Part shown: positions 3,602 to 19,150 of the stretch, in pieces | How the letters are laid out: each line of letters starts with the position of its first letter | Numbering within the stretch: position 1 is the first letter of the stretch | DNA from: Spongiibacteraceae bacterium | GTDB lineage: Bacteria > Pseudomonadota > Gammaproteobacteria > Pseudomonadales > Dasaniaceae | Length of the DNA stretch: 24,000 bases | Assembly (NCBI GenBank): GCA_030621845.1 | Contig: JAUXHA010000033.1 | Location: 1,604-25,603 of the forward strand | Direction of reading: 5' to 3' | Translations under genes and position numbers: made by a program | The notes under the pieces: model-generated | What the model was told of the DNA's origin: nothing | What the model saw: only the letters and a program-made list of their open reading frames with translations | Database searches by the model: none

Positions 3602-6103
3602 ATGCCACAAATCACAAAACTCACCAGAATAAGCCTTTGGCTGTTAATAACCGGTATCTCGGGGGCAACATTATTACTTGCCGCCGCCTATTTGTATTTA
3701 AGCCCCCAGTTGCCGCCAGTGAATCTAATAAGAGATGTCCAGCTGCAAACGCCCTCGCGTATCTATTCGTCAGACCGTCAACTGATTGGTGAATTTGGCG
3801 AAAAACGTCGCAGCCCAATTACCTTTGATGAAATACCCCCTCTTTTTGTCCAGGCCATCATTGCCGCAGAGGATGACCGCTTTTTCTCTCACCACGGTGT
3901 GGACCTCACCGGGCTCCTGCGTGCTGTTTCGCAGTTAGTACTCACTGGCGAGAAACAATCCGGCGGCAGTACCATCACCATGCAAGTCGCCCGAAACTAT
4001 TTCCTTTCTTTCGAACGCACTTTCTCCAGGAAATTTAATGAAATCCTGTTAGCATTACAGATTGAACGAGAGCTACCCAAGGAAGAAATCCTTGAACTTT
4101 ATCTCAATAAAATTTTTCTTGGCAATCGCGCCTACGGTATAGAAGCCGCGGCTCAAGTGTATTACGGCGAATCAATCGGCCAGCTGACACTGGCGCAACT
4201 GGCGATGATCGCCGGCCTACCCAAGGCGCCTTCAACCTTTAATCCCATTGTGAACCCCAGTCGGGCGCTGCTCAGGCGCAACTGGATCCTGGGGCGCATG
4301 CATGAACTGGATTACATCGATCAGTCCCAACTGCAGCGCGCGATTGAAAGTCCCCTTGTAGCCAGTTACCACGGCTCAACGCTTAAACTCAGCGCCCCCT
4401 ACGTGGCCGAAATGGCTCGCAAGGTGTTGTACGAGCGCTACGGTAACAAAGCCTATACCGCCGGCTACCAGGTCTATACCACGGTTTCTGCAAAGCTACA
4501 GGCCACGGCTCAACATGCGGTCATCAGTGGTTTGCTGGCCTATGACCGCCGCCATGGCTACCGCGGCCCCGAACAACAACTCGAATACAGCGAAGACGAC
4601 ATTAGCCGTGAAAACTGGTTAAGCACATTGGCCAAAACCGCAAGCTACGGTGGCCTGGCACCCGCCGTGGTCACTAGCGTCCAGCCGCAATCATTTACCG
4701 CGCTACTGGCAAGCGGTGAAGAGGTCAGCGTTGGCTGGGAAGACGGGCTGGCTGATTTCAGGCCCTATCGCAGTGTTAACAGCCGTGGCCCCGCCCCCAA
4801 ACAAGCGGCCGACATTGTTGCCATCGGTGACCTGATCAGGCTTAAACCCGAAGCTGATGAACAGTGGCAATTCTCCCAACTGCCGGCAACCCAGGCAGCA
4901 CTGATCTCCCTGGACAGCAACAATGGTGCCATCCTCAGCTTGGTGGGGGGCTTTGATTATGGGCGCAGCAAGTTTAACCGGGTGACCCAGGCCAACCGAC
5001 AACCGGGGTCAAACTTTAAACCCTTTATTTATACCGCCGCCCTCGCCAATGGCTTTACGCCCGCCACCATCATTAACGATGCCCCTATCGTTTTTGAAGA
5101 CCGGCAGCTGGAAAGTTCATGGCGCCCGGAAAATGCCAGCGGTAAGTTTTTCGGCCCCACACGTATGCGCCAGGCACTGTATTTATCCCGTAACCTGGTC
5201 TCCATCCGGATTTTACGCCGGGTGGGCATCAACACCGCGATCAACTATGTGGGGCGTTTCGGCTTTGACACCCAGCAGCTACCCAGAGACCTGTCGCTGG
5301 CGCTGGGAAGCCATTCACTGAAACCTATGGAGGTAGTGAGCGCCTACTCCGTCCTGTCCAATGGCGGCCACAAGGTATCGCCCTACCTGATCGAGCGCAT
5401 AGAGTCCCTGTATGGCACGGTACTCTATGAAGCTAATCCTGCCACCGTTTGTCTTACCTGCGAAGAAGTCGCCGAAACAGCGACCGAGCCTGCCGCAATG
5501 GCCGCAGAACTGAGTATGGAAGAAATCATCGACCAGGACGACGAGCTGAGCATCGAGGAAATTCTCCAGCAAGAGGAGCAAGCCACTAAACCCGAGCCAG
5601 TAATCGCTGAACGGGTGGTGGGCAAACGCATCGCTTACATCATTGATGACATGCTGCGCGATGTGGTTAAACGGGGTACCGGGCGCAAAGCGCTGGCCCT
5701 GGGGCGCTCAGACCTGGCCGGAAAAACGGGCACCACCAACGGCCCCGCCGATGCCTGGTTTTCGGGCTATGGCGGCGGCGTTGCCACCACCACCTGGCTG
5801 GGTTTCGATAGAAATGAATTACTGGGCCGAAACGAATATGGTGGCTCGGCGGCCCTGCCGATCTGGATCGACTATATGCGTGTTGCCCTTGAAGGCCGAC
5901 CCGAAACGCTGCGAAAGCGTCCGGAAGGCATCGTCAGTGTCAAAATTGACCCCAAAACCGGCCTGTTGGCCAAACCCGGCCAGCAGAACGCGATCTTCGA
6001 AATCTTCCGCCAGGAACTGGCCCCCTCAAGGGAAACCAGCGACAACCACGACCATGTGATACCGTCGGAAGAACAGGATCTATTGGACGATGATATTTTT
6101 TAA
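3602..6103 (+). CDS. mrcA: Penicillin-binding protein 1A (bifunctional glycosyltransferase/transpeptidase)
   Basis: 833 aa. It has an N-terminal TM anchor. GT51 motifs are present (AIIAAEDDRFFSHHGVD, GGSTITMQVARN, RKFNEILLALQIE), as are transpeptidase motifs (SNFKP = SxxK, SRN, KTGTT). Confidence 0.93.
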   Translation: MPQITKLTRISLWLLITGISGATLLLAAAYLYLSPQLPPVNLIRDVQLQTPSRIYSSDRQLIGEFGEKRRSPITFDEIPPLFVQAIIAAEDDRFFSHHGVDLTGLLRAVSQLVLTGEKQSGGSTITMQVARNYFLSFERTFSRKFNEILLALQIERELPKEEILELYLNKIFLGNRAYGIEAAAQVYYGESIGQLTLAQLAMIAGLPKAPSTFNPIVNPSRALLRRNWILGRMHELDYIDQSQLQRAIESPLVASYHGSTLKLSAPYVAEMARKVLYERYGNKAYTAGYQVYTTVSAKLQATAQHAVISGLLAYDRRHGYRGPEQQLEYSEDDISRENWLSTLAKTASYGGLAPAVVTSVQPQSFTALLASGEEVSVGWEDGLADFRPYRSVNSRGPAPKQAADIVAIGDLIRLKPEADEQWQFSQLPATQAALISLDSNNGAILSLVGGFDYGRSKFNRVTQANRQPGSNFKPFIYTAALANGFTPATIINDAPIVFEDRQLESSWRPENASGKFFGPTRMRQALYLSRNLVSIRILRRVGINTAINYVGRFGFDTQQLPRDLSLALGSHSLKPMEVVSAYSVLSNGGHKVSPYLIERIESLYGTVLYEANPATVCLTCEEVAETATEPAAMAAELSMEEIIDQDDELSIEEILQQEEQATKPEPVIAERVVGKRIAYIIDDMLRDVVKRGTGRKALALGRSDLAGKTGTTNGPADAWFSGYGGGVATTTWLGFDRNELLGRNEYGGSAALPIWIDYMRVALEGRPETLRKRPEGIVSVKIDPKTGLLAKPGQQNAIFEIFRQELAPSRETSDNHDHVIPSEEQDLLDDDIF

Positions 6104-6109
6104 CCCCGG

Positions 6110-7477
6110 CTAATCAATCGCTTCCAGCGCCTCCGCCAGTTTGTTGACCGCGATTACCTCCATTCCGGCGATGGGCTGCTTGGGCAAATTGCCCTTCGGC
6201 ACGATCGCCCGACGAAAGCCGTGTTTGACCGCCTCCTGTATACGCTCCTGACCGCTGGGAACCGGGCGAATCTCGCCCGCCAGCCCCACCTCACCAAACA
6301 CCACCAAATCCCGAGGCAATACCCGGTCACGAAAACTGGAGACGATAGCCAGCAACAGCGCCAAATCGGCACTGGTCTCCAGCACCTTAACGCCGCCAAC
6401 CACATTGGCGAACACATCCTGGTCGCCCACTTGCAAACCGCCATGACGATGCAAGACCGCCAGTAACATAGCCAGCCGGTTCTGCTCCAGCCCGACAGCC
6501 ACCCGACGGGGGTTACCCAGCGCTGACTCGTCGACCAGAGCCTGAATTTCAACCAGCAACGGTCGCGTCCCCTCCCACACCACCATTACCACACTGCCGG
6601 ATGCGGGCTCAGTGTCACGGCTAAGGAAAATTGCCGAAGGATTTTTAACCTCCTTTAATCCCTGCTCGGTCATGGCAAATACGCCCAGCTCATTAACTGC
6701 GCCAAAGCGATTCTTTTGCCCCCGCAGGGTGCGAAAACGGCTGTCATCGGAACCCTCAAGCATGATCGAGCAGTCGATCATATGCTCCAGCACTTTCGGC
6801 CCCGCGAGGCTGCCATCTTTGGTCACGTGACCTACCAGAAATAGCACCGTCCCGGTCTGCTTGGCGAAGCGGGTCAGGTACGCGGCGCACTCGCGAACCT
6901 GCGAAACGCTACCCGGCGCCGAGCTGATCTCATCACTGTGGACGGCCTGGATGGAATCCACCACCAGCACCCGGGGGCTGAGTTGCTGCGCCTTGGCGCA
7001 AATGGCCTCAACATTGGTTTCGGATAACATTTTCAAGTCTGCGGTCGGCAGACCCAAACGCTGCGCCCTCATGGCAACTTGCTGCAAGGATTCTTCACCG
7101 GTCACATAAAGCGCACTTCGATTTTGTGCCAGATGGCACATGGTCTGTAACAGCAGGGTGCTTTTACCTGCACCGGGATTACCGCCAATAAGAATCGACG
7201 AACCTGGCACCAAACCGCCCCCCAACACCCGATCAAACTCTCCGGCCCCGCAGGAAAACCGGGGCAGCTCATCCAGGTCAATTTCACCGAGGGTTTTAAT
7301 CGCCGTTGCCGCACCGCCATCATAGCTCTGGAAACGGGCCTCTTTTGCCGACTTGCCCGAGGCCAGCTTTATTTCCGACAGCGTATTCCAGGCCCCGCAA
7401 TCCTTGCACTGCCCCTGCCATTTACTGTATTCCGAGCCACAATCATTGCAGACAAAAGCGGTTTTTATTTTAGCCAT
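6110..7477 (-). CDS. radA: DNA repair protein RadA (Sms)
   Basis: It has the N-terminal zinc ribbon MAKIKTAFVCNDCGSEYSKWQGQCKDCGAWNT, a Walker A motif GGNPGAGKST, the KNRFG motif and a Lon-like C-terminal domain. I place the start at ATG 7477 (MAKIK...), matching the E. coli RadA N-terminus, rather than at the track start 7498. Confidence 0.93.
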   Translation of the reverse strand: MAKIKTAFVCNDCGSEYSKWQGQCKDCGAWNTLSEIKLASGKSAKEARFQSYDGGAATAIKTLGEIDLDELPRFSCGAGEFDRVLGGGLVPGSSILIGGNPGAGKSTLLLQTMCHLAQNRSALYVTGEESLQQVAMRAQRLGLPTADLKMLSETNVEAICAKAQQLSPRVLVVDSIQAVHSDEISSAPGSVSQVRECAAYLTRFAKQTGTVLFLVGHVTKDGSLAGPKVLEHMIDCSIMLEGSDDSRFRTLRGQKNRFGAVNELGVFAMTEQGLKEVKNPSAIFLSRDTEPASGSVVMVVWEGTRPLLVEIQALVDESALGNPRRVAVGLEQNRLAMLLAVLHRHGGLQVGDQDVFANVVGGVKVLETSADLALLLAIVSSFRDRVLPRDLVVFGEVGLAGEIRPVPSGQERIQEAVKHGFRRAIVPKGNLPKQPIAGMEVIAVNKLAEALEAID

Positions 7478-7606
7478 TAAATTTCCCAAGGTAATCAATA
7501 GGGTTACACACCGTGCATTGCACTACCGCTATGCTATCAGTGTAAAAGGGCTGGCGGCAATCTGCCTCTGAGCTTACAATGGTCACCAGCGAATAAAGGC
7601 AACAAA

Positions 7607-8188
7607 ATGAACCGCAAGAGAAACAATTACAGCGCATCCTGGGGCGATATGGTTGAAGCGCGCGGGCTGGCGATTTCCGACAGCTGGCAGCCCTCCAGTC
7701 AATTGCTTAACCAACTCATTAGCCAGGGTATCTCCCGCTATGCACTGCTCAATGAATGGCGCGGTGCCTTCATCCAGATCATGCAAAATGAAGATCGCCG
7801 GGAGGGTCAACAGCAATGGGATACACTGTTCCAGCAATTCGTAGCGCAGCAACAGCCGGTGGTCACTCCCTCCCCCGGCACCTATCCTGGCAGGCCAGGC
7901 AGCGAACCTTCGCGCACAGCCACCATGACTAACGACTGGCAGCCCAGCCAGGAAATGTTAAAACTCATTCGCGACACCGTCTGCCCGAACGGCGACTATA
8001 TTAAAGCGCAGCTAACCAGCTTTAGTAGCCACTTTTATGGCCAACACCATCCCAACTGGGATCAAAAGTTCAGGCAGTGGATTAACAACGGCTGGAATGT
8101 TTACGGCCATAAAAATAATTACAAAGAGCAGTCCGAGCAGGGATTTATTGAAAAACACACCGACCGGAGCTGGGCCGATGACCTCTGA
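7607..8188 (+). CDS. Protein with two tandem DnaT-C-terminal-like (phage O/DnaT type) modules; candidate replication/primosome accessory factor
   Basis: 193 aa. Two internally repeated modules each begin with a (S/D)WQPS motif: SDSWQPSSQLLNQLISQGI...QQQWDTLFQQFV and TNDWQPSQEMLKLIRDTV...HPNWDQKFRQWINNGW. They resemble the E. coli DnaT C-terminal segment as I recall it (PDWQPDADFIRL...VQWQQKLARSL). The C-terminal tail TDRSWADDL is reminiscent of the lambda O tail (TDWIYGVDL). The gene is translationally coupled to the next gene. Confidence 0.6.
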   Translation: MNRKRNNYSASWGDMVEARGLAISDSWQPSSQLLNQLISQGISRYALLNEWRGAFIQIMQNEDRREGQQQWDTLFQQFVAQQQPVVTPSPGTYPGRPGSEPSRTATMTNDWQPSQEMLKLIRDTVCPNGDYIKAQLTSFSSHFYGQHHPNWDQKFRQWINNGWNVYGHKNNYKEQSEQGFIEKHTDRSWADDL

Positions 8189-8768
8189 AGTCAGCGCCAG
8201 GCCAGGCATTGATAAAGAAGCCCTGATTAACGTCATTAATCAGCTGTTCGCCGAGTTCGAACTGGTCTATCACAACCAATACAACAAGGCCTTTCCTAAT
8301 GCTGAAAAAGTAAGCTACGCCAAAAAACTCTGGCTGAGCCACCTCTCGGATCACCCGCCACAAATTATTTTGAAGGCCGCTCACTGCGCCATCAGGGAAT
8401 CGGAGTTCCTGCCAACCATTAGGGGCATCCTCAAATATTGTGATGATGGCTACGGCCTCCCTGATGCCCGCAGCGCTTACCTGGAAGCCTGCCGCGCCAG
8501 CAGTCCAAAAAATGAATTCAACTGGTCACATCCTGCGGTATATTATGCTGGCCGTGAATCAGACTGGTACTTTCTCGCCGGTAGTCAGGAGCAACAAGGC
8601 TTCCCGGTATTCAAACGCAATTATACGCTGATCTGCGAGCGTGTTATTGCTGGCGAAACGCTTTCCATCCCCCTGCCCAAAGCCATTCCTGAAACGATCA
8701 ACACGCCCCTCAGTAATGACCAGCGCAAACAGCGCCTGCAATCCCTGCGCAAAGAACTGAAGATTTAA
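8178..8768 (+). CDS. Phage lambda P-like replication protein (helicase-loader family)
   Basis: 196 aa counted from ATG 8178. A GGAG lies 8 nt upstream, and the start overlaps the upstream stop by 11 nt. The protein is colinear with lambda P as I recall it: INQLFAEF vs INGVFSQL; FLPTIRGILKYC vs FLPSPGQFVAWC; GLPDARSAYLEAC vs GLPNVSELVDMVYEYC; WSHPAVYY vs WKSNAHYW; RVIAGETLSIPLPKAIP vs RINRGEAIPEPVKQLP. Confidence 0.65.
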   Translation: MTSEVSARPGIDKEALINVINQLFAEFELVYHNQYNKAFPNAEKVSYAKKLWLSHLSDHPPQIILKAAHCAIRESEFLPTIRGILKYCDDGYGLPDARSAYLEACRASSPKNEFNWSHPAVYYAGRESDWYFLAGSQEQQGFPVFKRNYTLICERVIAGETLSIPLPKAIPETINTPLSNDQRKQRLQSLRKELKI

Positions 8769-8911
8769 TAACAGGCGATGACAGCGGAAGCGGCTATGGC
8801 CGAAAAATGTATCGCCACACTGAGCCACTCGAACTGAATGCCTAACACCTTAAATCCCCACGGGGCAAACTACCACAGTGCCTGCCCTGCACATAACAAA
8901 GAAGATGACAC

Positions 8912-12724: not shown

Positions 12725-13762
12725 ATGACAAGCACAATCAATCATCGTCGTTACAAGATAATCCTGGTGGCGCTGGGCTGGCTTAATTTTACCGCAGTAG
12801 CACTAGCCGATGAACTACCCACGGTAAATGATCTGCTAGTTGACACGCCTTTTCGTTCAAACCACAGCAAACAGGTTCTGGCCGGGGAAATTGCCAGCAC
12901 CAAGGTTGTTCCAGTATCAAAGTCCGAACTGGCTCAAGGCGTTGCCTGCCTGATTAAGGGCGACAAACTGGACCGCCTCGCCTCCGTCCAGGGTGCCACC
13001 TGGCTGGCACCCGAGCGGCAGATTATCAGCAGCGCCAGAATACCGAATCACGCATCGGTAACTGATTTTAATGCTATCCAGCTGCAGCCGAAATACAGCG
13101 ATGAAATAAACGCCTACATGAAGGCCAAAGCCGGCAATCAATTAAATCTTTCCCTCACAGAAATATCGGCCTTTAATGCGCTACAAAGCAGCGAAGACCC
13201 ACAATTAACACTGAACGGTGTCGACCCGCTGATACAGAAAAATTTACTGTCCCGATACCGGGAGTACCGAGAGCAGGGATTAAAAAACCTGTCGCCTTAT
13301 GCTCGAACTCGAGGCAAGGAAGTCCAGCCAGGAAAACAATTAATGATTTCTCTGGAGGAATCATTAGCACTAAAGAGAATATACCCAAAAATTTATAATG
13401 CGCTTGAGCAATACCCCCAAGCCAGCAGCGATGTCGTAGCGGTAGAAGATTATTTTTCGTATATGGTGGACTTGAATGATCGCCCCGCTATCGGCTTAAG
13501 CCATCGCCTCCGCATCCACGCCGAAGGCGCAAGCTTTGTTATCGAGCGCGGTTATTACATCAGCCATACACTGGATACTGTACAGATTGTGGTGGCGTTA
13601 ATTCCGGTTCAGGAAGGCATGCTACTGATCTACACCAACCGCACCTGGACAGAAAAAATTACCGGCTTGTTCAGCCTGATCAAACGAAGAATTGCCTACA
13701 ACATCATGATTGCTGAAATGGAACATGTAATGAAAAATATCGATCTATGCGGCGCGTCCTGA
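12725..13762 (+). CDS. Hypothetical exported protein (family not recognised)
   Basis: 345 aa. It starts 35 nt after tatC on the same strand. The N-terminus MTSTINHRRYKIILVALGWLNFTAVALA|DE has a signal-peptide shape with an RR pair and an AxA cleavage site. I can name no known domain and see no obvious SD sequence. Confidence 0.6.
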   Translation: MTSTINHRRYKIILVALGWLNFTAVALADELPTVNDLLVDTPFRSNHSKQVLAGEIASTKVVPVSKSELAQGVACLIKGDKLDRLASVQGATWLAPERQIISSARIPNHASVTDFNAIQLQPKYSDEINAYMKAKAGNQLNLSLTEISAFNALQSSEDPQLTLNGVDPLIQKNLLSRYREYREQGLKNLSPYARTRGKEVQPGKQLMISLEESLALKRIYPKIYNALEQYPQASSDVVAVEDYFSYMVDLNDRPAIGLSHRLRIHAEGASFVIERGYYISHTLDTVQIVVALIPVQEGMLLIYTNRTWTEKITGLFSLIKRRIAYNIMIAEMEHVMKNIDLCGAS

Positions 13763-13796: not shown

Positions 13797-14222
13797 TTAG
13801 CACTCCAGCTCAATAATCTCATAGCTATGACTGACATCGACCCCGGCAGCCTCCATCATAATGGAAGCAGAACAGTATTTTTCAGCCGACAGGCTCACCG
13901 CCCTTTTCACCTGCGCTTCCTTGAGCTTTCGCCCACTGACAATAAACTTAAGGTGTATTTTGGTAAATACCGCTGGCACCGCATCGGCACGTTCCGCCTC
14001 AACTTCCACCTTGCAGGTATCAACCTGCTGACGAGATTTCTGTAAAATACCCAGCACATCAAAAGTGGCGCAGCCACCCATGCCCAGCACCAGCATTTCC
14101 ATCGGCCGAATACCCATATTTCGACCACCCAATTCCGGCGGGCCGTCCATCACTACCGCATGCCCACTCCCCGACTCACCGAGGAACATAACCCCGTCCA
14201 CCCACTTCACAGTTGCTTTCAT
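13797..14222 (-). CDS. yhfA: OsmC-family protein, YhfA-like
   Basis: It is colinear with E. coli YhfA as I recall it: KATVKWVDGVMFLGESGSGH vs ARVKWVEGLTFLGESASGH; PMEM...GGC; LSAEKYCS; THSYE. It is divergent from crp/vfr, as in E. coli. The start is set at ATG 14222 (MKATVKW) rather than the track start 14267. Confidence 0.85.
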   Translation of the reverse strand: MKATVKWVDGVMFLGESGSGHAVVMDGPPELGGRNMGIRPMEMLVLGMGGCATFDVLGILQKSRQQVDTCKVEVEAERADAVPAVFTKIHLKFIVSGRKLKEAQVKRAVSLSAEKYCSASIMMEAAGVDVSHSYEIIELEC

Positions 14223-14404
14223 AGATACGTCTTCTTCACGGTTGTCATCAGCCGGCAAGCTTATCATAAGCCGCTTAAGGCTGCGCCCTGCACGGCCTAT
14301 CGGCAGGCATACACTGATTCACGTTAAAGCTAGCGCTATCGTCAATTTGAAGCCATACTGACAGTCTGATTATTACAGCATTATGTACAGCGAGGGACAA
14401 TCCG

Positions 14405-17011: not shown

Positions 17012-19150
17012 CTAGGCATTTCTTTTATAGCGATGAAACTTCTCAGCCAGGCGTAATAAAAATTCCGGTTTACGTTGTTTTTTCCATTCCCCCGCCACGT
17101 ACTTATTAGCTTCACTAAAAGTCGGGTAAATATGAATCGTGGCGAGAATCTTATTCAAACCCAGGCCGTGCTTCATTGCTAAAATATACTCGGTTATTAA
17201 TTCACTGGCATGATAACCAACAATGCTAACGCCAAGAATTCTATCACTGTTAACGGCCGTCAGGACTTTAATAAAACCCTGCGTCTCGGAATCAGCGATG
17301 GCCCGATCCAAATCATCCAGGGCAAATACCGTTAGCTCGTACTGGATACCCTGCTGCATTGCCTCCTGTTCATTCAAGCCGACACGCGCCGCTTCGGGGT
17401 CAGTAAAGGTGACCCAGGGAATCACCGAATAATCGACCTTGAATTTCCTGAAACTGCCAAACAGGCTGTTCACCGCCGCATACCAGGCTTGATGTGAGGC
17501 CACATGGGTAAACTGATAGGGACCGGCGACATCGCCACAGGCATATATGGTTGGGCAATCGGTACGCAGATTGTCATCCACCGCAACCGTACCGGTTTCG
17601 GTGCGTTCAATACCCACGGTTTCAAGCCCCATATTCTCGGTATTAGCCTGACGCCCTACGGCAAACAACAGTTGGTCAAACTCAATCGTCGACTCACCAC
17701 CACTGTGTGACAGGGTTGCTGAATACTTGCCCCGTTTATTTTCCAGTGCCAGCAACTGGTGTCGGCACAGGACATCAATCCCCTCACGCTCAAATTGCTG
17801 TTTAATCTCGGTACTCACATCCAGATCTTCCTTCGGCAGCAACTCACTGCGTACGACCATGGTTACCCGGCTGCCCAGACGAACAAATGCCTGCGCCAAC
17901 TCACAGCCAACCGGACCACCGCCGACCACCAATAAATGCCGCGGCTGTTGCGCCAACTGCCAAATCGTATCGGAGGTCAGGTAATCAATCGCGTCCAGGC
18001 CCTCGATATCAGGCACCTGTGGGCGACCCCCGCTGGCGATAATAATATTTCGCGCGCTTTGCACCTCATTGCCTATTTTCACCTCCCAGGGCGAGATGAT
18101 CTTCGCCTCACCCTGTACACAATTAACCCCCAGCTCGGTATAGCGCTCAACCGAGTCATGGGGTTCAATCTGGCTGATCACCCGGTCAACCCGCCGCATC
18201 ACCTCAGGAAAATTCACCACCCCATTGACGCCTTCAATACCAAATTCACTGGCGCGACTCAAATAATGATTGATACGACTGGAACGAATAAGTGCCTTGC
18301 TAGGAACACAGCCGGTGTTGAGACAGTCACCGCCCATTTTATGTTTTTCCACCAGCGTGACTTTCGCCTTGACCATGGCGGCGATATAGGCCGACACCAG
18401 CCCCGCTGAACCCGCGCCAATCACCAGCAGGTTATTATCAAAAAAATCCGGCTTGCGAAAAGGTGCCAGCCGCCGCCGATCTTTAAACCAGGCGATCATT
18501 ACTTTCGCCAACCAGGGGAAAATACCCAGAGCCACAAAAGAACCAATCAGTGCCGGTGAGAAAATATCCCCGACACTGTCCAGCCGACCCAACTGGGTAC
18601 CCGCATTCACATAGACCGCAGTACCCGCCAACATTCCCAGCTGGCTGACCCAGTAGAATGACCAGATCCTGATCGGCATTAAGCCCATCACCAGGTTGAT
18701 GACGAAAAAGGGGAACAGCGGCACCAGTCTCAAGGTAAAAAGATAAAAGGCCCCGTCTTTTTCTATGCCCGAATTAATCGTTGACAGGTACGGCTCAAAA
18801 CGCTGCTGTACCCATTGCCGAAACAGCGTGCGAGAGATAATAAACGCCAGCGTAGCCCCGATGGTCGAAGCGAAGGAGACAATTAGCAACGCCCAGCCGA
18901 AGCCAAACAGGGCACCTCCCGCCAGGGTTAGCACTGCGGCACCGGGCAGGGACAGAGCCGTCACCACAATATAAAGCCCCGCGTAGAGTAGCGCCGCCAG
19001 TAACGGTTGCCCTTCACGCCAGGCCTCCAGCGCCTGGCGTTGAGCGGCAAAGTAATCAAGACTCAGGTATTGTCCTGCATCAAAGTAAAAGAATGCCGCG
19101 ACCGCCAAAACCAGTAGCACAAACAAAGCCAATTTATACATATACATCAT
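17012..19150 (-). CDS. Fusion protein: N-terminal DedA/TVP38-TMEM64 membrane domain plus C-terminal class-I pyridine-nucleotide-disulfide oxidoreductase (GR/LpdA/MerA-like)
   Basis: 712 aa.
- Approximately aa 1-225 (nt 18475-19150) are polytopic and hydrophobic, with DedA-like motifs (LSLPGAAVLTLAGGALFG, FTLRLVPLFPFFVINLVMG).
- From approximately aa 237 on: FAD GxGxxG (LLVIGAGSAGL), redox-active disulfide GGDCLNTGCVPSK, NAD(P)H GxGxxG (LLVVGGGPVGCE), IYACGDVAG, and the C-terminal His-Glu dyad HIYPTFSE. Confidence 0.85.
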   Translation of the reverse strand: MMYMYKLALFVLLVLAVAAFFYFDAGQYLSLDYFAAQRQALEAWREGQPLLAALLYAGLYIVVTALSLPGAAVLTLAGGALFGFGWALLIVSFASTIGATLAFIISRTLFRQWVQQRFEPYLSTINSGIEKDGAFYLFTLRLVPLFPFFVINLVMGLMPIRIWSFYWVSQLGMLAGTAVYVNAGTQLGRLDSVGDIFSPALIGSFVALGIFPWLAKVMIAWFKDRRRLAPFRKPDFFDNNLLVIGAGSAGLVSAYIAAMVKAKVTLVEKHKMGGDCLNTGCVPSKALIRSSRINHYLSRASEFGIEGVNGVVNFPEVMRRVDRVISQIEPHDSVERYTELGVNCVQGEAKIISPWEVKIGNEVQSARNIIIASGGRPQVPDIEGLDAIDYLTSDTIWQLAQQPRHLLVVGGGPVGCELAQAFVRLGSRVTMVVRSELLPKEDLDVSTEIKQQFEREGIDVLCRHQLLALENKRGKYSATLSHSGGESTIEFDQLLFAVGRQANTENMGLETVGIERTETGTVAVDDNLRTDCPTIYACGDVAGPYQFTHVASHQAWYAAVNSLFGSFRKFKVDYSVIPWVTFTDPEAARVGLNEQEAMQQGIQYELTVFALDDLDRAIADSETQGFIKVLTAVNSDRILGVSIVGYHASELITEYILAMKHGLGLNKILATIHIYPTFSEANKYVAGEWKKQRKPEFLLRLAEKFHRYKRNA

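Follow-up and report, generated by a model that had tools for sequence, protein, structure and literature searches.

How does a pair of genes resembling the replication genes O and P of phage lambda come to stand between radA and ubiB in a bacterial chromosome, and what might it do there? The pair lies in a 24,000-nucleotide stretch of a Spongiibacteraceae genome (assembly GCA_030621845.1, contig JAUXHA010000033.1), which is called the window in what follows, and an earlier inspection of the sequence, here the original prediction, had taken the two genes for the organism's own system for loading the replicative helicase DnaB. Our analysis identifies them as a dopC-dopE operon, a lambda O/P-type module that is fixed in the chromosome and most likely serves as DnaB helicase-loading system, a reading to which we give a probability of roughly 0.78. 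The names dopC and dopE were introduced by Brezellec et al. 2017 (Genome Biol Evol, PMC5509034) in the Cellvibrionales and part of the Oceanospirillales for domesticated lambda O and P genes in bacteria lacking dciA and dnaC/dnaI; in that study the Cellvibrionales are without dciA and dnaC/dnaI and all have dopE. The original prediction had described this phylogenomic proposal accurately. Because its features are those by which PMC5509034 recognises dopC/dopE, the pair is best described as an ortholog of the published system, that is, as a marine bacterium's copy of a system already known. Next to DciA and DnaC/DnaI, DopCE has been proposed as a third type of replicative-helicase loader in bacteria, and a 2026 Sci Adv paper is among those that cite it as a textbook-style example of the domestication of phage genes. 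The system having been published, what is new here is a truncated variant of DopC and a hypothesis about its C-terminal tail, and the overall picture is unchanged.

The two genes and the junction between them are laid out as follows:

7607..8188, + strand: dopC (open reading frame 1, ORF1), a short form of 193 amino acids (aa) with two DnaT-type three-helix-bundle repeats and a disordered C-terminal tail, and without an N-terminal domain.

8178..8768, + strand: dopE (ORF2), 196 aa, lambda-P-like; its ATG (8178-8180) lies within a larger open frame, 8037..8768.

8166..8188, + strand: putative translational-coupling junction, made up of GGAG (8166-8169), a spacer of 8 nucleotides (nt), the dopE ATG (8178-8180) and the dopC TGA (8186-8188).

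The start of dopC at 7607 is the first start codon past an in-frame upstream stop, and radA is only 108 nt away. Read directly from the sequence, dopC and dopE overlap by 11 nt, and these two co-oriented, overlapping genes, with ATG 8178 and a GGAG 8 nt upstream of it, are exactly as the original prediction had claimed. The identical 11-nt arrangement is found in two independent metagenomic relatives (L051 and L052), and the N-terminus MTSEVS of dopE is common to its closest homologs. The genes are presumably co-transcribed and translationally coupled. Antisense ORFs inside the pair (7583-7852, 8012-8236 and 8145-8384, all shorter than 90 aa) found no support.

The evidence that the second gene encodes a helicase loader of the lambda P type comes from profiles, alignment and fold. 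DopE matches the Pfam family Phage_lambda_P (PF06992) at 7.3e-12 (45.8 bits, cutoff 26), in a match that spans aa 19-163 and model positions 2-160 of 162, and it matches PHROG_109, 'P-like helicase loader', at 2.3e-21 over aa 12-195. A profile built from 33 DopE homologs aligns colinearly with lambda P in hhalign, residues 13-196 of DopE corresponding to residues 33-228 of lambda P. The AlphaFold (AF2) model of DopE is all-helical, with a predicted local distance difference test score (pLDDT) of 83, and its five best Foldseek matches in the PDB, with probability 1.0 and a best E of 2.6e-5, are all lambda P chains, from the DnaB-lambda P complexes 9oa1/9oa2; among viral proteins, those nearest to it in fold are replisome organizers, G39P-type loaders and protein P. 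The earlier description of the second product as colinear with lambda P is thus borne out, and the profile searches that the original prediction had proposed match the lambda P and DnaT families well beyond chance. NCBIfam holds no model for either DopC or DopE.

Two elements of DopE can be placed on lambda P in detail:

8406..8417, + strand: DopE motif F77-L-P-T80, aligned by hhalign with F99-L-P-S of lambda P.

8715..8756, + strand: predicted C-terminal lasso-type helix of DopE (aa 180-193), which aligns with lambda P 212-228.

A 2025 cryo-electron microscopy study (PMC12661323) defined domains II, III and IV of lambda P, and by alignment and model DopE carries counterparts of all of them, in an architecture of two helical domains and the C-terminal lasso helix. 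Around the FLPT motif, S75, L78 and P79 do not vary among the 33 DopE sequences, E76 and T80 hardly do, and F99 of lambda P is part of its binding site for single-stranded DNA (ssDNA) (PMC12661323). In the model, helix 180-193 is preceded by an extended segment (158-179); given the lasso function of the corresponding helix of lambda P (PMC12661323), the DopE C-terminal helix would be expected to bind DnaB.

A protein of this kind might also withhold DnaB instead of delivering it: lambda P out-competes DnaC for DnaB, and a resident P-like protein could in the same way form an anti-phage or regulatory module that sequesters the helicase, denying it to phages or throttling initiation. That domestication could hamper phage replication was indeed speculated upon in PMC5509034. 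Yet PADLOC gave no defence-system match, for which reason a defence system was rejected, the core-genome position and order-wide conservation of the pair are unlike those of defence islands, and a distribution complementary to that of dciA/dnaC (PMC5509034) fits replacement and not addition. We consider sequestration very unlikely, and return to DopCE as a loading system.

Both proteins match phage families, and their closest characterised relatives are the O and P proteins of phages, so the pair could in principle be a decaying or cryptic lambdoid prophage remnant, two leftover replication genes without cellular function. Against this stands, first, its position. We compared the window with 47 genome loci that carry dopE and with the metagenomic relatives L051, L052 and L055, upstream ORFs in the related loci being chosen by the tail motif described below and by hidden Markov model (HMM). 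In the closest genome loci (HTCC2143, Oceanicoccus and Dasania) the order is pilM-ponA-radA, dopC-dopE-ubiE-ubiJ-ubiB-hisIE-tatABC. The radA-dopC-dopE order, and with it the position next to radA, is kept in L001-L004, where DopE identity is only 54-55%, and the three metagenomic relatives, with DopE 78% identical, keep the same radA-dopC-dopE-ubiE-ubiJ-ubiB order. A co-oriented gene directly upstream of dopE, in the arrangement seen in the window, is present in 40 of the 47 genome loci.

Second, both genes evolve as functional genes do: the ratio of nonsynonymous to synonymous substitution rates (dN/dS) is 0.05-0.10 for dopC and for dopE, as against 0.054 for radA (rough values, dS being near saturation), which indicates strong purifying selection on both, and their frames are intact and their coupling conserved. 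Third, DopE of the window belongs with the chromosomal proteins. Its identity to chromosomal homologs is 42-79% (about 60-64% for the best named species), and its best phage match, P of Pseudomonas phage PAJU2, is 32% identical. In a neighbour-joining tree (no bootstrap) chromosomal DopE sequences, that of the window included, are monophyletic, with PAJU2 P and lambda P outside. The homologs of DopE form 705 clusters, and the named ones among the matches listed are Cellvibrionales or Pseudohongiellaceae, with Spongiibacter, Zhongshania, Oceanicoccus and Dasania among the named matches. The nearest named matches of RadA are from Oceanicoccus (85%) and Dasania (82%), both Spongiibacteraceae within the Cellvibrionales, and by these matches the host falls in the Cellvibrionales/Spongiibacteraceae, an order with published dopE.

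Fourth, the surroundings carry no trace of a phage. Across the 24 kb of the window there is no phage structural or integration gene, integrase included, no att-like repeat and no tRNA, and GC content is flat at about 0.5 with no compositional break. The earlier claims that the neighbours are all housekeeping genes, that no phage gene, att-like repeat or tRNA accompanies the pair, and that it is not the remains of a prophage all hold. Conserved synteny and purifying selection together effectively refute a prophage remnant, which we regard as extremely improbable, and support the pair as a resident chromosomal module derived from lambda O and P. An Rfam scan of the window found no family, so no hidden RNA element is indicated. 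Iterons are likewise absent, the only repeats being chance-level two-copy repeats of 11-15 nt, and DnaA-box matches number 6 against 5.3 expected, with none in 7400-8900; an origin of replication inside dopC was rejected on both grounds.

What, then, is the partner of DopE? The recognisable parts of DopC are these:

7673..7852, + strand: DopC repeat 1 (aa 23-82), a degenerate DnaT-like domain (repeat HMM 3e-15).

7922..8110, + strand: DopC repeat 2 (aa 106-168), the best-conserved DnaT-like domain and best Pfam DnaT stretch.

8144..8185, + strand: DopC C-terminal tail (aa 180-193), FIEKHTDRSWADDL, disordered, acidic and aromatic.

DopC matches Pfam DnaT (PF17948) in two stretches (1.9e-15, 56.8 bits, cutoff 25) and the C-terminal, DnaT-like part of PHROG 'replication initiation protein' families (2.7e-14). 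Its AF2 model (pLDDT 71) consists of two three-helix bundles and is disordered in the linker (85-102) and in the tail (170-193), and its top PDB fold match is the DnaT84-153/ssDNA complex 4ou6 (probability 0.95, template modelling score, TM, 0.60 on the target). These matches confirm that the first product carries modules of the DnaT/phage-O type, as had been proposed from the sequence. Repeat 1 keeps W-x-P. Repeat 2 carries a W-Q-P-S motif, Trp151 and Lys154, and when it is aligned with E. coli DnaT, H142/F143 fall at the positions of Y127/W128 and K154 at that of K143, the ssDNA-binding residues of DnaT being taken from PMC4132743; most of the invariant residues of DopC lie in repeat 2 and the tail. 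DnaT similarity is confined to the C-terminal domain of that protein, since DopC has neither the N-terminal oligomerisation domain of DnaT nor its acidic PriB-binding linker, and DopC, with its repeat-linker-repeat-tail architecture, does not qualify as a DnaT ortholog. Nor is it an O-type initiator: Phage_rep_O (PF04492) finds no match in window DopC, in a search that gives 5.7e-36 for lambda O and 3.9e-19 for PAJU2 O, and what it shares with lambda O is limited to the tail. Separately, proteins P0259, P0267, P0274, P0277, P0281 and P0291, of approximately 180-200 aa, match DopC repeat 2 only; they include the NGWNV-like end and then stop without a D-x-S-W tail, and may be a separate DnaT-domain family.

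The DopC of the window is shorter than most. Canonical DopC, present in 37 of 40 loci, has about 375-400 aa and comprises a conserved N-domain, some 130 aa long (MQSSLIPERPLVISPTLAATIGLEE...), three DnaT repeats in tandem with a period of 73 aa, each scoring about 80-97 bits (L001 4815-5969, L013 4827-5990 and 35 other loci), and the tail. The short form consists of two DnaT repeats and the tail, without the N-domain; there are 14 such homologs, of 189-206 aa, and the form is shared throughout a subclade that in the tree comprises the window, L003 (an Oceanicoccus metagenome-assembled genome, MAG), L004 (Dasania phycosphaerae), L051, L052 and L055. It was in the N-terminus, described as of helix-turn-helix (HTH) type in Saccharophagus degradans DopC, that PMC5509034 placed the lambda-O homology of DopC. 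In the window this region is missing: only 22 residues precede the first DnaT repeat, and there is no start codon further upstream in the frame of dopC 7607. By this comparison the short DopC has lost the sole part that PMC5509034 calls lambda-O-like, and the gene is a truncated DopC variant whose orthology holds through its position, its DnaT repeats and its tail. A Pfam search finds no family for the canonical N-domain, and the HHpred-level HTH assignment of PMC5509034 is not reproduced thereby. When the short DopC was searched by tblastn against 50,697 phage genomes there was no match, and the canonical long DopC alone matched phage initiators.

With DnaT-type ssDNA-binding bundles as its only recognisable domains, DopC could be a pure restart factor, that is, an analogue of DnaT that acts downstream of PriA at abandoned forks, where it binds lagging-strand ssDNA and passes DnaB on via DopE, while oriC uses another loader or none. 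In the E. coli restart preprimosome the C-terminal domains of DnaT assemble on the ssDNA of the lagging strand into a filament (PMC13377028), which the tandem, covalently joined repeats of DopC, above all the triple repeat of the canonical form, may mimic; a DnaT-domain gene followed by a loader gene also mirrors the E. coli dnaT-dnaC operon, and fork reactivation was raised as one option in PMC5509034. If, however, DopE is the sole DnaB loader, as the phyletic pattern of PMC5509034 suggests, it must also serve oriC, and the two roles are not exclusive. The N-terminal domain and PriB-binding linker of DnaT are lacking in DopC, no priB or dnaT context is visible in the window, and nothing in the window separates initiation from restart. 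A role in restart only is therefore unlikely in our judgement, and we retain the broader reading of DopCE as a helicase-loading system.

The best-conserved feature of DopC across the family is its short C-terminal tail, and it is this tail that it shares with lambda O. DopC ends in HTDRSWADDL*, lambda O in TNTDWIYGVDL* and O of Pseudomonas phage PAJU2 in NDTSWAVGLEQDLF*, so that D-x-S-W-x-D-D-L of DopC can be set beside T-D-W-I-Y-G-V-D-L of lambda O; comparison with lambda O and PAJU2 O substantiates the lambda-O-like tail that had been noticed on the first product. In the DopC model, residues 170-193 have a pLDDT below 50. The motif F-x-x-(H/F)-T-D-x-S-W-x-(D/E) closes the ORF upstream of dopE in 40 of 47 genome loci, and a D-x-[STGD]-W ending is found in 85 of the best 150 family representatives, as compared with 0.6% of internal windows. 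A similar tail ends lambda O, PAJU2 O and the O-like proteins of VW-6S and SC_8, each encoded just upstream of a P-like loader gene. In lambda, the C-terminal region of O binds P and the C-terminal region of P binds DnaB, and Oam29, which makes 294 of the 299 aa of O and thus lacks the last five residues, is null (PMC6022878). Since lambda O, which cannot do without its last five residues, has this tail in common with DopC, the DopC tail is probably a peptide on which DopE docks, the counterpart of the essential lambda O C-terminus. A different arrangement is found in Marinomonas phage P12026 (L061, 1531-3620), where the P-like gene is directly followed by the phage's own DnaB-type replicative helicase gene and the protein in the O position, upstream of the P-like gene, is without a Trp tail.

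From these elements a mechanism can be proposed. The coupled genes would give matched amounts of adaptor (DopC) and loader (DopE). Several copies of DopE would bind the subunit interfaces of DnaB through the domain III-like region and the C-terminal lasso helix, crack the DnaB ring to give an open spiral and bring it to ssDNA, in the manner of lambda P. DopC would be a minimal adaptor, its DnaT repeats sitting on exposed ssDNA, with repeat 2 keeping most of the ssDNA-contacting positions of DnaT, and its tail HTDRSWADDL recruiting the DopE-DnaB complex; the ssDNA in question would be the DnaA-opened unwinding element of oriC, the lagging strand at abandoned and restarted forks, or both. Because both the N-domain shared with phage initiators and iterons are absent, this DopC cannot work as a sequence-specific origin binder. 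We therefore put forward, tentatively and with distinctly less confidence than the loading role itself, that the short DopC reveals the minimal DopCE unit, an ssDNA-binding DnaT-repeat adaptor with a loader-docking acidic-Trp tail that needs no sequence-specific DNA-binding domain. Were this so, DopCE would be a convergent equivalent of DnaT-DnaC in E. coli, DnaB would be loaded at any exposed ssDNA, oriC opened by DnaA and restarted forks alike, and the D-x-S-W tail would serve lambdoid replication modules in general as a motif for O-to-P recruitment. To our knowledge, such a general role of D-x-S-W has no prior description.

Several points weigh against a helicase-loading operon of this kind. 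DopE and lambda P are only about 17% identical, the hhalign match between them is weak (E 1e-3, probability 20%), and the fold matches have low TM-scores (0.34-0.51), which we put down to the extended, partner-shaped form of lambda P. When PDB chains were searched by sequence (phmmer with DopE, and profiles of DopE and of DopC), neither lambda P nor DnaT was retrieved, so that the links to both rest on the Pfam and PHROG profiles, hhalign and the fold search. The Lys and the aromatic pair with which E. coli DnaT binds ssDNA are missing from DopC repeat 1, the dN/dS values are approximate for the reason given, and the contact between tail and DopE is one that we infer throughout. That this genome is without dciA and dnaC/dnaI is presumed from the order-wide pattern of PMC5509034. 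Seven of the 47 loci (L014, L017, L035, L036, L039, L041 and L042, with dopE at approximately 6001-6550 in part of these) have no dopC within about 6 kb and form one DopE clade, set among other housekeeping genes, for example GGDEF/P450/ADH with SHMT, or GST with a TonB-dependent receptor; in this clade, an exception to the published statement that dopE always has dopC beside it, DopC may be accessory or unlinked. Finally, as the original prediction had supposed, searchable literature up to 2026 yields no experimental test of DopE or DopC, and papers up to that year mention DopE solely as a proposed loader or a classic instance of domestication.

Taken with the rest of the family, this copy nevertheless constrains what DopC can be. 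A whole subclade gets by with a DopC from which the one domain earlier described as lambda-O-like has been lost, the best-conserved feature of DopC family-wide is a short tail shared with lambda O, and another clade of DopE has no adjacent dopC at all. The value of the copy in the window lies in these limits on DopC function and in a hypothesis about the tail that can be tested.

The two flanks of the pair can be described as follows:

7499..7606, + strand: divergent intergenic region between radA and dopC, candidate dopCE promoter region.

8769..8911, + strand: spacer of 143 nt between dopE and ubiB, the module boundary, where ubiE and ubiJ sit in relatives.

The radA-dopC region probably holds the dopCE promoter. 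An alignment of intergenic regions shows CTATGCTATCAG (7529-7540) and a -10-like TACAAT (7575-7580) to be invariant in the window, L051, L052 and L055, relatives that have reached saturation at synonymous sites, and the two are likely promoter or operator elements of the divergent radA and dopC genes. A consensus scan of the region found no strong sigma-70 site on the + strand, and AAGG at 7596-7599 is a weak ribosome-binding site for dopC. The sequence TGGCGGCAATCTGC upstream of dopC was considered as a sigma-54-like site and dropped, its spacing being one nt off.

On the other side, all of L001-L004, L051, L052 and L055 have dopC-dopE-ubiE-ubiJ-ubiB, with ubiE of 249 aa and ubiJ/SCP2 of about 210 aa; no homolog of ubiE or ubiJ is found in the 143-nt spacer or anywhere else in the window. 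The original prediction had noted a synteny break here. The part of it that stands is that ubiE-ubiJ is missing before ubiB; the implied displacement by the pair is not upheld, the pair normally sitting upstream of ubiE-ubiJ-ubiB. Since all relatives checked have the complete series, the missing genes point to a separate, lineage-specific event, which could be relocation, loss or deletion, or an artefact of MAG assembly.

The window as a whole is a resident setting in which housekeeping genes alternate in transcription direction, radA lying divergent upstream of the pair and ubiB downstream. From the left it reads pilQ-pilPONM, ponA, radA, dopC-dopE, ubiB, hisI, hisE and tatABC, then an ORF of no recognised family, OsmC, a Crp-family regulator (crp/vfr), DJ-1, a methyltransferase and a DedA-oxidoreductase fusion, and at the right end trxA, rho, a HemN-like gene, a PEP-CTERM protein and ilvD. 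The ORF right after tatC (12725-13762, + strand, 345 aa) has no Pfam or PHROG match. The fusion (17012-19150, - strand, 712 aa) combines a membrane domain of the VTT/DedA type with an entire pyridine-nucleotide disulphide oxidoreductase, dimerisation domain included. The OsmC-like protein (13797-14267, - strand) matches PHROG_30510, a family of unknown function, at 3.3e-67; this is probably a host gene captured in phage datasets and not a phage gene here.

How the pair compares with systems already described can now be stated. With the published dopC/dopE of Cellvibrionales and some Oceanospirillales, for example those of S. degradans and Cellvibrio japonicus (CJA_3124), it shares a DnaT-domain gene followed by a PF06992 P-like gene, a resident housekeeping context, the absence of iterons and DnaA boxes, and a host of the order Cellvibrionales; with dopE of its Spongiibacteraceae relatives it shares the radA-linked context. 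It departs from the published pairs in a DopC that is short (193 aa) and without the N-domain and one of the three DnaT repeats, and in having no ubiE-ubiJ downstream.

With the O/P genes of lambda and the pair of PAJU2 it has the order in common, an adaptor or initiator gene tightly coupled to a loader gene behind it; the O and P genes of lambda share 4 nt. Over domains II-IV the colinearity of DopE with lambda P takes in the FLP(S/T) motif as well as the C-terminal lasso helix, and DopE differs in that the lasso at the N-terminus (domain I) is reduced to a short disordered stretch, residues 1-12. The tail of DopC resembles those of lambda O and PAJU2 O. Unlike lambda O, however, DopC has no Phage_rep_O winged-helix domain, dopC holds no iterons or internal origin and has no phage neighbours, and lambda O has a C-terminal domain that Pfam does not class as a DnaT domain, in contrast to the repeats of DopC. 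Among phage initiators, the 'replication initiation protein' of Stenotrophomonas phage StM171 is 31% identical to canonical DopC (L013) over the N-domain and first two DnaT repeats (aa 4-274), and it has a single repeat and lacks both a D-x-S-W tail and a P-like partner. The DopC of the window matches the DnaT-like part of the PHROG 1408/1032/2509 initiator profiles, whose N-domain it is without.

Set beside E. coli dnaT-dnaC, the pair has a loader, DopE, that is of the P type and has no AAA+ ATPase, unlike DnaC. In DopC, where repeat 2 and the DnaT domain are 25% identical, tandem repeats and an O-like tail take the place of DnaT's N-terminal oligomerisation domain and its acidic PriB-binding linker. 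Both systems have a DnaT-type three-helix ssDNA-binding bundle encoded directly upstream of a gene for a DnaB loader of phage origin, and the logic proposed for both is the same, an adaptor bound to ssDNA recruiting the complex of loader and helicase.

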